Virus record (IMG/VR): IMGVR_UViG_2534681936_000011
DNA length: 47,026 nucleotides
Source of the DNA: a virus
Taxonomy: Duplodnaviria > Heunggongvirae > Uroviricota > Caudoviricetes
Direction: 5' to 3' (one strand)
Made by a program: the position numbers and the translations under genes. This document shows, in pieces, positions 11,812 through 19,117 of this stretch; positions within the stretch are counted from its first letter, which is position 1, and every line of letters starts with the position of its first letter. The notes beneath the pieces are model-generated. The model was not told the DNA's origin and did not search any database. It worked only from the letters and a program-made list of their open reading frames with translations.

Positions 11812-12003
11812 GCGAAAACGGTTTGCTGTAACGGCAGAGTTAAGTAGGATTGCTGCGGGTGCTTGAGGCTATCTGCCTCGGGCATGAACACCAACGGCAG
11901 ATAGATAAAAGCCCCACCCGACTATAAATCGAAGTGAGGCCCCTATATGCTCGTCACATATAGATTGCCTCTTACGGACCGAAAGGTCAAGGAGAAGCAG
12001 GCT

Positions 12004-12159
12004 ATGAAGCAGCAAAAGGCGATGTTAATCGCCCTGATCGTCATCTGTTTAACCGTCATAGTGACGGCACTGGTAACGAGGAAAGACCTCTGCGAGGTAC
12101 GAATCCGAACCGGCCAGACGGAGGTCGCTGTCTTCACAGCTTACGAACCTGAGGAGTAA
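12004..12159 (+). CDS. hok: Hok/Gef-family type I toxin
   Basis: 51 aa MKQQKAMLIALIVICLTVIVTALVTRKDLCEVRIRTGQTEVAVFTAYEPEE, a canonical Hok sequence; an in-frame upstream extension (from 11947) occupies the mok position. Confidence 0.8.
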   Translation: MKQQKAMLIALIVICLTVIVTALVTRKDLCEVRIRTGQTEVAVFTAYEPEE

Positions 12160-15290: not shown

Positions 15291-15366
15291 GGCCCTTTAG
15301 CTCAGTGGTGAGAGCGAGCGACTCATAATCGCCAGGTCGCTGGTTCAAATCCAGCAAGGGCCACCA
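15291..15366 (+). tRNA. ileZ: tRNA-Ile (anticodon CAU, lysidine type, ileZ-like)
   Basis: Cloverleaf: acceptor GGCCCTT/AAGGGCC, D-arm GCTC...GAGC, anticodon loop CTCATAA, T-loop TTCAAAT, CCA end; close to the recalled E. coli ileX sequence. Confidence 0.85.
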
Positions 15367-15456: not shown

Positions 15457-15533
15457 GCGTTGTTAGCTCAGCAGGACAGAGCAATTGCCTTCTAAGCAAT
15501 CGGTCACTGGTTCGACTCCAGTACAACGCGCTA
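15457..15533 (+). tRNA. argO: tRNA-Arg (anticodon UCU, argO-like)
   Basis: Acceptor GCGTTGT/ACAACGC, D-arm TAGCTCAGCAGGACAGAGC, anticodon loop CTTCTAA, T-arm ACTGG-TTCGACT-CCAGT. Confidence 0.8.
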
Positions 15534-16299: not shown

Positions 16300-16613
16300 T
16301 TTTTTTGTTTGCTGTTTATTAAAAACACTTCTGCATGGTGAATCCCCCTGTGCGGTGGGGCAATCAGCAAGAAGGAATATGGGGTAATCGCGGATTCAGG
16401 TGCTGATACTGAATTCACCGGGAGGCACCCGGCACCATGCTTTGCCACAAAAGTGTTATTTCTGTTTTTCTCAAACTATCATCGTTATCCCTTTATTTTC
16501 GGCTGCGCATGGCGCGGCCTTTTTTTTACGACCAGCCACTGGCAGATGGTCATCCTGTGATTTGATTCCGCTTCCGGCTTTTTAACTCTGTTCCTCTACA
16601 CGGGAGAAATTCG

Positions 16614-18464
16614 ATGTCGATTAAACATTACGATGTTATCAGGGCGGCGTCGCCGTCAGACCTTGCGGAAAAGCTGACACACAAACTGAAAGAGGGCTGG
16701 CAGCCATACGGCGGACCGGTTGCCATTACGCCGTACACACTGATGCAGGCGGTGGCTATTGAAGGAGAGCCACAGGTCGGCCCTTCATCTGAGCCGGATT
16801 GGTACTACGTCATCGTACTGGCCGGGCAGTCCAATGCAATGGCTTACGGTGAAGGGCTTCCGCTGCCGGATTCATACGATGCTCCGGATCCGCGCATTAA
16901 ACAGCTGGCGCGCCGCAGTACAGTGACGCCGGGTGGGGCTGCCTGCAGATATAACGATATTATTCCGGCTGACCACTGTCTGCATGATGTGCAGGATATG
17001 AGTACGCTGAATCATCCGAGGGCTGACCTGAGCAAAGGGCAGTACGGCTGTGTCGGTCAGGGTTTACATATTGCCAAAAAACTGCTCCCGTATATCCCGA
17101 ATAACGCGGGGATCCTGCTGGTACCATGCTGTCGTGGTGGTTCGGCATTTACCCAGGGCGCGGAGGGGACATTCAGCGAGTCCACGGGGGCCAGTCAGGA
17201 TTCGGCACGCTGGGGGGTGGGCAAGCCGTTATATCAGGATCTGATTTCCCGCACAAAAGCGGCATTGCAGAAAAATCCCAAAAACGTTCTGCTGGCCGTC
17301 TGCTGGATGCAGGGTGAGTTTGACATGAGCGCCGCCACCCACGCACAGCAACCTGCGCTGTTTACAGCCATGCTGACACAGTTTCGTGCTGACCTCTCCG
17401 TGTTTAACGCGCAGTGCCATGGTGGCAGTGCTGCAGATGTGCCGTGGGTTTGTGGTGACACGACGTATTACTGGAAAAATACATACGCTACCCAGTACGA
17501 CACCGTGTACGGCGGGTATAAAAACAGGGAGAGTGAGGGCGTTTATTTTGTGCCCTTCATGACAGACGGTAACGGCGTCAATACCGCCACTAACGCGCCG
17601 GCAGAAGATCCGGATATTCCGGCATCAGGATATTACGGTGCGGCATCGAGAACGAATGGAAACCAGGTATCATCAAACCGCCCGACACATTTCAGTTCAT
17701 GGGCGCGCAGGAGCATTATTCCGGATCGTCTGGCAACCGCTATTCTGAACGCAGCCGGGCGCACCTCAGCCTTCATCAGTGGTAAGGCACCGGAAATCAA
17801 ACCCTCGCCCGGCGGCAACACGCCATCGGGTCCGTCTGCAGATACGTCCGTTCGCACAATCTCCCTGCTGCCGGCAGCCGGAGAGGCTGCTGCGCAGGGC
17901 TGGAGCATTAAGGATGGCGGAATTCAGTTGTCAGATGGTGTATTTAAGATCACCAAGCAGAGCAATAAAACCTGGTCCCTGACGCATCCGGTGGATGACG
18001 CAATTACCCTGCTGACACAGGGCGGCAGACTGACCTGTAAGTTCCGCCTGTCAGGCGCACTGACCAACAATCAGTTCGGGCTGGGGATTTATCTGTATAC
18101 GGATGCTCCCGTTCCTGATGGTGTGGCGATGACGGGTACCGGTAATCCGTTCCTGATGTCGTACTTCACTCAGACCACTGACGGCAGAGTGAATCTGATG
18201 CATCACAGGAAAGCCGGAAACACGAAGCTGGGGGAGTTCGGCGATTACGGTAACGACTGGCAGACGCTGGAGCTGGTGTTCACCGCCGGCAGTGCCACGG
18301 TTACTCCGAAACTGAATGGAGTGGCTGGCCCGGCATTCCAGGTTATAAAAGACAGTCTGACACTGGGACTGAATGCGCTGACGCTGACGGATGTTACAAA
18401 AAATGCAGCGTATGGCGTTGAGATAGAAAGTCTGATGCTGGAGATAAATGCACCGGCAGCATAA
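16614..18464 (+). CDS. nanS-p: NanS-p-like sialate O-acetylesterase (N-terminal DUF1737, SASA-like esterase, C-terminal domain)
   Basis: 616 aa; N-terminus MSIKHYDVIRAASPSDLAEKL; esterase motif region LAGQSNAMAYGEG; same position as the esterase downstream of stx in Stx phages. Confidence 0.7.
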   Translation: MSIKHYDVIRAASPSDLAEKLTHKLKEGWQPYGGPVAITPYTLMQAVAIEGEPQVGPSSEPDWYYVIVLAGQSNAMAYGEGLPLPDSYDAPDPRIKQLARRSTVTPGGAACRYNDIIPADHCLHDVQDMSTLNHPRADLSKGQYGCVGQGLHIAKKLLPYIPNNAGILLVPCCRGGSAFTQGAEGTFSESTGASQDSARWGVGKPLYQDLISRTKAALQKNPKNVLLAVCWMQGEFDMSAATHAQQPALFTAMLTQFRADLSVFNAQCHGGSAADVPWVCGDTTYYWKNTYATQYDTVYGGYKNRESEGVYFVPFMTDGNGVNTATNAPAEDPDIPASGYYGAASRTNGNQVSSNRPTHFSSWARRSIIPDRLATAILNAAGRTSAFISGKAPEIKPSPGGNTPSGPSADTSVRTISLLPAAGEAAAQGWSIKDGGIQLSDGVFKITKQSNKTWSLTHPVDDAITLLTQGGRLTCKFRLSGALTNNQFGLGIYLYTDAPVPDGVAMTGTGNPFLMSYFTQTTDGRVNLMHHRKAGNTKLGEFGDYGNDWQTLELVFTAGSATVTPKLNGVAGPAFQVIKDSLTLGLNALTLTDVTKNAAYGVEIESLMLEINAPAA

Positions 18465-18910
18465 TAAAAAAAGCCAGCGACTGACCTGAAAAAGAAGACG
18501 CTGGCTAAAAGGCCTTATATGTTTGTAGAGACTTATTTTTCACAGACAGCAATGATGCCTGTCAATATATTATCAATATGCGGATTGTTTCAGTTACAGA
18601 TGCCTTATTAAGGAAAAAAACAGCCAGCACTGACTTTCGGTGGAGAGGTGCTGGCTCAAAAGGATAGATGTACTTCACATGTTGCTTCTATATGGCAGTA
18701 CATTTTCTGACAGACAGTGACGGATGTTGTCAAGATATTGTGTCATTTATAACCTGAATCAGGGGAGGCCGGAATGTTATCTGGCATTTTTAGCAGAGCC
18801 TGAATGCCATAATCACGGCTCCCGGCGTTGGCCGTCAGTGGGTGACACTGGCGGCTTTTTGTTTTTCTTTACTTTCATTTTCTGTCGGCGGTGACGGAGA
18901 CATACATCAG

Positions 18911-19117
18911 ATGGAAAAAATCACAACAGGTGTGTCATACACCACGTCAGCGGTGGGGACGGGATACTGGTTACTGCAGCTGCTGGACAAAGTCTCTCCG
19001 TCCCAGTGGGTGGCAATAGGTGTGCTGGGAAGTCTGCTGTTTGGCCTGCTGACGTATCTGACAAATCTTTATTTCAAGATTAAAGAAGATAAGCGTAAGG
19101 CTGCGAGAGGTGAATAA
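18911..19117 (+). CDS. S: Class II holin (phage 21 S-like pinholin)
   Basis: 68 aa [68 protein letters not shown], close to recalled S21. Confidence 0.8.

Follow-up and report, generated by a model that had tools for sequence, protein, structure and literature searches.

The closest described relative of the locus analysed here is PasA (pathogenicity-associated sRNA A) of EPEC E2348/69, encoded in prophage PP2 (Pearl Mizrahi et al., 2021; PMC8550237). It lies on the minus strand of NC_011601.1 between E2348C_0688 and E2348C_0689, starts at position 743499 and was assigned, by northern blotting and RNA-seq, a major end at 743415 (85 nt) and a minor one at 743264 (236 nt) (PMC8550237, Table S6). 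Northern blots showed that its stability depends on Hfq (PMC8550237), and RIL-seq recorded 41 partners, with PasA as RNA2 in at least 94% of the fragments (PMC8550237, Table S5). Its seed, GCCAGCACCU, is in the 5' arm of the terminator, and its target motif is CUGAUGCUGGA (PMC8550237, Fig. S5 and Table S7); Table S7 also pairs pasA with E2348C_0688_743175_743305_+, at the site CUGAUGCUGGA. The synteny and distribution of pasA have been described by Zhu, Shabalina and Storz (2026; bioRxiv 10.64898/2026.05.13.724894), who inferred a common origin of PasA and PasC, reported the pasA copies to be distal and not tandem duplicates, and derived the mature 5' end of PasA from cleavage of a longer transcript. 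In EHEC O157:H7 Sakai, EcOnc51 and EcOnc52 were recorded as Hfq-CRAC peaks in prophages Sp12 and Sp4, respectively, both flagged with predicted terminators (Tree et al., 2014; PMC4104026, Table S2), and a table in PMC8550237 cites the two as EHEC homologues of PasA.

Here we examine a gap between an esterase gene and a holin gene that very probably holds two tandem paralogous minus-strand sRNA cassettes, pasA and an EcOnc52-type unit that we call unit 1. Both sRNA loci are already catalogued (PasA at 85 and 236 nt; EcOnc51 and EcOnc52), so that the finding is real and mostly known. The residual novelty is modest and lies in the diverged tandem pair, in a possibly independent second sRNA and in the modular relation of the pair to PasC.

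Two hairpins with U7 tails in the esterase-holin gap

The window, by which we mean the whole stretch of DNA analysed, is the 47,026-nt Caudoviricetes record IMGVR_UViG_2534681936_000011. The TAA stop codon of a SASA esterase ORF occupies 18462-18464 and the ATG of a class II holin is at 18911, which leaves a gap of 446 bp; a reading made earlier from the sequence alone (the sequence-only reading) had put it at 380 bp, a length that fits only the 377 bp between the esterase and the longest GTG-start holin ORF. The same reading had placed two tandem hairpin units with plus-strand A7 runs in this gap, and every hairpin and A7 coordinate that it quoted was verified. It had sized the units at about 140 bp; the spacing from unit to unit is 150 bp between the terminators and 168 bp between the upstream blocks. 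The hairpins are as follows.

18466-18472, plus-strand letters: A7 of unit 1, followed by stem arms GCCAGCG (18473-18479) and CGCTGGC (18499-18505), read from the sequence
18614-18620, plus-strand letters: A7 of unit 2, followed by stem arms GCCAGCAC (18623-18630) and GTGCTGGC (18648-18655), read from the sequence
18466..18505, minus strand: intrinsic terminator of unit 1, stem GCCAGCG/CGCUGGC then U7, adjoining the esterase stop codon
18614..18655, minus strand: intrinsic terminator of unit 2 (PasA), stem GCCAGCAC/GUGCUGGC then U7

Folded as minus-strand RNA, the hairpins reach -16.5 kcal/mol in unit 1 and -16.3 kcal/mol in unit 2 (z scores of -4.3 and -3.4 against dinucleotide shuffles). Termination at both is strand-specific, because the plus strand past the hairpins reads TAAAAGG in unit 1 and TCAAAAGG in unit 2, with no U-tract. 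A simple terminator scan flags part of unit 1 only, since both loops are longer than its 8-nt limit. The GenBank record of phage 434 (OL657226.1) contains the same gap at 99.8% identity and annotates two minus-strand terminators and one plus-strand terminator at exactly the equivalent positions. No minus-strand gene reads into the units, and the only minus-strand ORF that touches them is a mechanical 38-aa ORF with a GTG start at 18562-18678.

Directly 5' of each stem is a U-rich stretch, CCUUUUGA in unit 2 and CCUUUUA in unit 1. The 3' module of Hfq-dependent sRNAs reportedly consists of a terminator hairpin with a long U tail and a U-rich stretch upstream of it. We take such a module to be present where a GC stem is followed by at least seven U residues and directly preceded by a U-rich stretch, and the U7 tail, the GC stem and the upstream stretch are found together in both units.

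Unit 2 is pasA

With E2348/69 coordinates equal to window coordinates plus 724801, the published ends of PasA run on the window from 18698 to 18614 (major form) and to 18463 (minor form).

18614..18698, minus strand: pasA, 85-nt Hfq-dependent sRNA (unit 2), 5' end at 18698, end of the U7 tail at 18614
18463..18698, minus strand: minor 236-nt isoform of PasA, which passes the first terminator and ends at the terminator of unit 1
18431..18441, plus strand: CUGAUGCUGGA motif, which complements the PasA seed, in the 3' end of the esterase ORF; a recorded RIL-seq target site of PasA

Between 18420 and 18920 the window is identical to the pasA locus of E2348/69 except for one T in a T-run, which sits upstream of the holin and outside both units. 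The PasA northern probe GCCAGCACTGACTTTCGGTGGAGAG (25 nt) matches 18623-18647 exactly, and the seed is found on the minus strand at 18646-18655, in a terminator that has its U-tract. Location agrees as well: judged by the ORF list, E2348/69 and phage 434, the unit lies antisense between the sialate esterase and the holin/lysozyme operon. By sequence identity, then, unit 2 is pasA. Hfq-dependent accumulation and pairing in trans have been published for the identical EPEC sequence. The sequence-only reading had proposed minus-strand sRNAs transcribed against the late operon and ending at 18466 and 18614; the published RNA-seq, northern, RIL-seq and CRAC data agree with this, and the RNA-seq and northern data from E2348/69 place minus-strand ends at window positions 18614 and 18463.

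Units 1 and 2 are old tandem paralogues

The sequence-only reading had also noted a downstream block common to the two units. The block exists, and its shared sequence is corrected here to ACAGACAG, which appears as TCACAGACAG in unit 1 and as TGACAGACAG in unit 2. Pairwise alignment of the units shows three conserved islands in the same order.

Island 1: AATAT-TTGACA
Island 2: CTGTCTGT-A-AAAAT
Island 3: UUUUAGCCAGC...GCUGGCU-U7

Of 2000 shuffles, 1 reached the local alignment score of the terminator block and 7 reached the score of the upstream block. An nhmmer profile built from unit-2 variants only finds unit 1 end to end in the 47-kb window at E=2e-4, and the reciprocal profile finds unit 2 at E=1.3e-3; the next matches after both units have E values of at least 0.8. 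Units 1 and 2 are true tandem paralogues, adjacent and on the same strand. Their paralogy is old, the bodies being scarcely alignable, and the body of unit 1 is shorter than, and unlike, that of unit 2.

We aligned the stems of nine distinct terminator variants: PasA, the Sp12 variant, that of one further related locus (L023), three of PasC and three of unit 1, one of them plasmid-borne. Among these, 93% of the stem cells pair, compared with 22-53% when the alignment is slid to other registers, and compensatory changes occur in 4 of the 10 pairs, for example G-C to A-U between the units and C-G to U-A in L023. Three stem cells are U-G; their plus-strand counterparts would be A-C mismatches, and this speaks for the minus-strand RNA as the fold under selection. 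In the plasmid copy of unit 1, one stem change gives U-G in the minus-strand RNA only. These stems bear on a further reading, in which the hairpins once terminated a minus-strand gene that has since been lost, or are palindromes that arose by chance and yield no RNA. The absence of a minus-strand gene there and the empty RefSeq annotation under both units fit such relics, but Hfq-bound minus-strand RNAs end at the hairpins (northern, RNA-seq, RIL-seq, CRAC), the stems carry compensatory changes, and the units are kept in 677 of 5426 complete E. coli genomes. We consider relics or chance palindromes extremely improbable.

PasC and the variety of elements at the junction

PasC, from prophage PP5 of E2348/69, is a minus-strand sRNA that follows directly on an esterase stop codon, as unit 1 does. 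Its A7, its GCCAGCG...CGCTGGCTAAAA terminator and its TAAAA flank match unit 1, and its body and upstream block match unit 2; it differs from the locus described here in being a single unit and not a tandem pair, and its loop is unlike that of either unit. Allowing up to 3 mismatches, the PasC probe matches nowhere in the window, and what PasC shares there with unit 1 is the terminator stem and flank only. By sequence, PasC looks like a unit-1-type terminator joined to a unit-2-type body. Exchange between the GCTGGCT(A/C)AAA repeats by recombination would convert the two-unit form into the PasC form and back.

Across 80 IMG/VR loci that have this holin, the content of the gap varies, as follows.

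Two units: the window, E2348/69 PP2, phage 434 and Sp12
Single PasC-type unit
Single PasA-type unit abutting the esterase: L023
166-bp gap with a hairpin remnant only: 16 IMG/VR loci, for example L052
Unrelated cassettes with the same architecture, including the tandem pair in L044

The pair in L044 (IMG/VR contig 2529293141_000008, about 2610-2990) consists of two other tandem minus-strand cassettes in the esterase-holin gap, with A6-7 runs, hairpins GCCGCCAGT...ACTGGCGG and TCCACCA...TGGTGGA, and TTGACA about 90-100 nt upstream. Since these are unrelated in sequence to PasA, the junction shows the tandem antisense-cassette architecture more than once. In the class of L007 and L035 (about 2760-2960) and in L040, a further minus-strand cassette lies after a diverged esterase; it combines A6 with a long GCCAGCGCAGA...TCTGCGCTGGC stem, is preceded by TTGACA-16-TATAGA and matches no Rfam family. 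In holin loci that lack the esterase (L022 at 2268, L049 at 2325, L061 at 2286, L041 at 2284 and others), related minus-strand hairpins, CCGCCAGC...GCTGGCGG then U7, are found upstream of the holin, at a distance of about 700 bp, and suggest a wider prophage RNA family with the GCCAGC stem that serves as the PasA seed.

Unit 1 itself is present in 677 of the 5426 complete E. coli genomes (about 12%), at a median of 3 copies per carrying genome. When the pattern of the shared promoter block was scanned against 185,579 species-representative genomes, the tandem pair was found only in Escherichia albertii (one true pair); 16 single matches in non-Escherichia genomes are about what chance would give for 18 specified bases.

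Promoter-like blocks and the direction of transcription

Upstream of each unit, a block in the minus strand resembles a promoter, and paralogue alignment puts the two blocks in the same register.

18705..18733, minus strand: putative promoter of unit 2, -35 TTGACA (18733-18728), 17-nt spacer with CTGTCTG, weak -10 TCAGAA (18710-18705)
18537..18565, minus strand: putative promoter of unit 1, TTGACA (18565-18560), 17-nt spacer with CTGTCTG, TGAAAA (18542-18537)

The mapped 5' end of PasA is 7 nt downstream of TCAGAA, and the mapped 5' ends of PasA and PasC are a homologous C, in each case 7 nt past the -10-like hexamer. A standard promoter scan misses both blocks (18537-18565 and 18705-18733); it passes over them because the -10 hexamers TCAGAA and TGAAAA lack the usual T at position 6. 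Among ten unit-2-type variants, the 68 nt upstream of the PasA 5' end are nearly invariant, and the first ~45 transcribed nt, from the mapped 5' end on, are highly variable. The near-invariance runs on as far as the holin, and may thus mark where recombination has joined sequences instead of selection for a promoter. If the PasA 5' end arises by cleavage, as Zhu et al. (2026) report, the promoter would be elsewhere. The assignment of minus-strand promoters to both units is an inference.

The shared block also reads as a sigma-70-like promoter on the plus strand, overlapping the minus-strand TTGACA.

18543-18571, plus strand: promoter-like sequence in unit 1, CAGACA-17-TATATT, 9/12 matches in the promoter scan
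18711-18739, plus strand: promoter-like sequence in unit 2, CAGACA-17-GATATT, read from the sequence

One may read the ACAGACAG...TGTCAA-ATATT block as a plus-strand promoter, CAGACA-N17-TATATT/GATATT, that points toward the holin, the units then being bidirectional modules; transcripts from unit 1 would be antisense to PasA and would end at terminators at 18768-18785 and 18830-18856. The scan does flag 18543-18571 (9/12), the same arrangement recurs at 18711-18739, and a strong plus-strand terminator stands ahead of the holin. RIL-seq also recorded a plus-strand RNA, pasA.E2348C_0689.IGR (743494-743512), in chimeras with PasB, an unrelated prophage sRNA (PMC8550237), and this fragment (18693-18711 on the window) can be counted in favour of plus-strand transcription. 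However, its position is upstream of the plus-strand site in unit 2, esterase or late mRNA could be its source, and promoter-like matches are not enriched in the region (2, against 1.5 expected from shuffles). As plus-strand promoters would leave the observed minus-strand RNAs unexplained, they could be an addition at most, and we regard them as improbable.

The plus-strand fragment at 18693-18711 overlaps the 5' end of PasA in antisense. The strong plus-strand intrinsic terminator occupies 18830-18866 (GGCCGTCAGTGGGTGACACTGGCGGC then TTTTTGTTTTT), about 45 nt before the holin ATG, and a weaker one lies upstream of it at 18768-18790. A hairpin with a T-run is found at the pre-holin position in every holin locus examined, whatever the upstream gene, with stem sequences that vary; the phage 434 record annotates a plus-strand terminator there. 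One role of this terminator may be to keep moron transcription out of the lysis cassette in lysogens.

Unit 1: an sRNA gene or a second terminator

18466..18530, minus strand: unit 1, EcOnc52-type paralogue, giving a predicted RNA of ~65 nt if its own promoter-like block is active
CUCUACAAACAUAUAAGGCCUUUUAG: sequence specific to unit 1

The 3' end of this RNA has experimental support, and its 5' end at 18530 is placed by homology to PasA. The EcOnc52 peak (Sakai Sp4, 1181998-1182075, minus strand) is identical to unit 1 save for two indels, a U-run in the loop that is two residues shorter and an extra C ahead of the U-tail. EcOnc51 (Sakai Sp12) is a unit-2 variant that differs from PasA across its 5' half, a divergence that fits Zhu's description of PasA-2, the comparison being with that description only. 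Of the known EHEC prophage sRNAs with which the sequence-only reading had thought comparison worthwhile, EcOnc51 and EcOnc52 thus turn out to be the counterparts of units 2 and 1, respectively.

In E2348/69, the RIL-seq entity pasA.E2348C_0688.IGR (743267-743294) is on the minus strand, always in the RNA2 position and with a U-tract of 7 (PMC8550237); its reads map to 18466-18493, the 3' half of unit 1. The terminator of unit 1 is used in vivo, and RNAs that end there bind Hfq and sit in the sRNA position of RIL-seq chimeras. Whether these RNAs have their own promoter is where two readings part. According to the first, unit 1 is a decaying duplicate that serves as a fail-safe terminator for PasA read-through and shields the 3' end of the esterase gene from antisense transcription, all RNA ending at 18466 being the 236-nt isoform of PasA or its fragments. 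The published annotation of PasA, with a major 85-nt and a minor 236-nt form, is of this kind, and the read-through accounts for unit-1-terminated RNA with no second promoter. The body of unit 1 is short and unlike that of unit 2, its RIL-seq fragments are few, and its partners number 5, compared with 41 for pasA. Its Sakai reads are moreover multi-mapping: unit 1 has the same sequence in Sp4 as in Sp12, and so CRAC reads are not assignable to the Sp4 copy, which an IS element isolates.

Set against this, the CRAC signals of EcOnc52 and EcOnc51 are equal (AUC of about 1.0M and 1.1M), and the ratio of unit-1 to pasA chimeric fragments shifts about 20-fold between conditions, from 2.4% in activating to 47% in non-activating ones. 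The promoter-like block of unit 1 holds the register of PasA and is the best-conserved part of the diverged plasmid copy on pO145-13514, with 0/41 differences there compared with 15/112 elsewhere (Fisher p=0.012, post hoc). Intact unit 1 is also kept where unit 2 is missing, both in Sp4 and, at ~91% identity, on about 100 plasmids. A purely fail-safe role is a possibility that we take seriously and hold to be less than probable. Because the promoter-like block has been kept and unit 1 survives alone on plasmids and behind IS629, unit 1 may be an independent sRNA; for an RNA of ~65 nt made from the retained block we see roughly even odds. The predicted unit-1 RNA pairs with the RIL-seq partner escD no better than shuffles do (duplexfold; a fraction of 0.47 at least as good), the sole feature of the pairing being a 7-bp AAGGCCU match.

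The settings in which unit 1 stands alone can be described as follows. In Sakai Sp4 (L084 1131-1816; NC_002695.2 1182130-1182815), IS629/IS1203 lies directly upstream of the promoter-like block of unit 1, after ...ATATGCGGATTG, in place of unit 2. The E. coli plasmids with unit 1 only are 80-95 kb in size. On the one plasmid inspected, pO145-13514 (NZ_CP006028.1; L086 2412-2650), unit 1 adjoins an 87-bp esterase pseudogene fragment, and the two lie between IS elements, near uilS.

Annotated RNA families in and around the gap

Searched against Rfam at E<=1, the gap gave nothing but a spurious U12 match on the wrong strand (E=0.32). The AgvB and AsxR models (RF02702 and RF02703) had no match at E<=1 between 17800 and 19400, and the gap elements of 7 related loci matched neither these nor other Rfam families. 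A minus-strand CA-rich sequence, CACAAUAU...ACAACAUC, had suggested that unit 2 might be the anti-GcvB sRNA AgvB; we rejected this identity, as the CA-rich stretch is in the promoter region, outside the 85-nt RNA, and the gap is free of Rfam matches to it. In L023, the AgvB model matches at 639-700, adjoining STnc100 and not in the gap. Size and copy number had likewise suggested that unit 1 might be HnrS, a 66-nt multicopy prophage sRNA (PMC13502914). HnrS was ruled out: it equals EcOnc10-12, about 3 kb away in Sp12, and of the 351 bp of Sakai sequence that surround it, the window matches just the first 81 bp, which fall outside the EcOnc10 interval.

Elsewhere in the window, Rfam places STnc100 (100.8 bits) at 16304-16476 on the plus strand, just upstream of the esterase, where E2348/69 has PasD2. 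We rejected the identification of this match as PasD, the PasD northern probe having no match in the window within 3 mismatches. At the Rfam gathering score are also isrC (40653-40775, minus strand, 150 bits), the sok antitoxin RNA (11857-12006, plus strand, 104 bits) and, upstream of the esterase region, two tRNAs on the plus strand (15291-15363 and 15457-15530).

A model for the locus

The arrangement that we favour has two cassettes, antisense in orientation to the phage late operon. In each, a promoter-like block is followed by a short body of variable sequence, then by a U-rich stretch and last by a GC hairpin that carries a U7 tail; the 3' end is a classic Hfq-binding module. Published experiments on identical or near-identical sequence supply the strand, the 3' ends and the Hfq binding at both units, and for PasA the Hfq dependence and the partners in trans. 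PasA, stabilised by Hfq at 85 nt, would base-pair in trans through GCCAGCACCU in the 5' arm of its terminator, and among its recorded partners are core genes, LEE genes and the adjoining esterase ORF, at the 3' end of the latter. Unit 1 acts at least as a second terminator for the 236-nt read-through of PasA, and could also yield its own sRNA of ~65 nt. From the present analysis we infer the promoters, the independent expression of unit 1 and a history of duplication or recombination, in which PasC would have combined a unit-1-type terminator with a unit-2-type body.

A bolder version of this model, to which we give slightly less than an even chance, is that pasA is half of an ancient tandem pair; that unit 1 (EcOnc52) is an independent Hfq sRNA of ~65 nt, with its own promoter and a PasC-like seed, GCCAGCGUCU; that the junction is a recombination hot spot at which promoter, body and terminator modules are swapped; and that action in cis is possible. 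If so, module swapping would yield PasA, PasA-2, PasC, the single-unit forms and the solo unit 1 on virulence plasmids, and the pair could act in cis during lytic growth on the Q-antiterminated late transcript just upstream of the holin.

Through PasA-family sRNAs, the carriage of prophages in EPEC and EHEC is tied to how core genes and virulence genes (LEE, bfp) are regulated. Our findings leave the broad view of prophage sRNAs as it was, and their practical value is in annotation, the locus being unannotated in RefSeq and absent from Rfam. A BLAST query with PasA would miss the diverged unit 1. If unit 1 is an independent paralogue, published surveys of pasA copy number and evolution undercount the family, and the claim that pasA did not arise by tandem duplication needs qualifying.

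Comparison with known sRNA systems

Compared with PasA of E2348/69, unit 2 has the same sequence, strand, position, terminator and seed, and we find no difference between them. Published work on PasA treats the 150 bp downstream as a 3' extension only, whereas here they are a diverged tandem paralogue. Similarly, Tree et al. (2014) listed EcOnc51 and EcOnc52 separately, as orphan peaks of two prophages, with no northern blot and no mention that the two kinds stand in tandem or are paralogues. AgvB and AsxR resemble the units described here in being prophage-borne, Hfq-bound, 50-60 nt in length and antisense to the late operon in the lambdoid moron region; they lie upstream of the esterase, however, and not downstream of it, and share no sequence similarity with the units.

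As an arrangement, the pair resembles tandem duplicated Hfq sRNAs such as OmrA/OmrB of E. coli and PrrF1/PrrF2 of Pseudomonas. For each copy in those pairs, a promoter and independent expression have been demonstrated, whereas here the promoter of unit 1 is putative and read-through from unit 2 is documented. Both of our units have TTGACA-N17-T(C/G)A(G/A)AA in the same register, with a weak -10, and their homology as neighbours on one strand is borne out by the reciprocal nhmmer matches (2e-4 and 1.3e-3) and by the shuffles. Like OmrA/OmrB and PrrF1/PrrF2, they are adjacent same-strand paralogues with conserved 3' terminators and diverged bodies.
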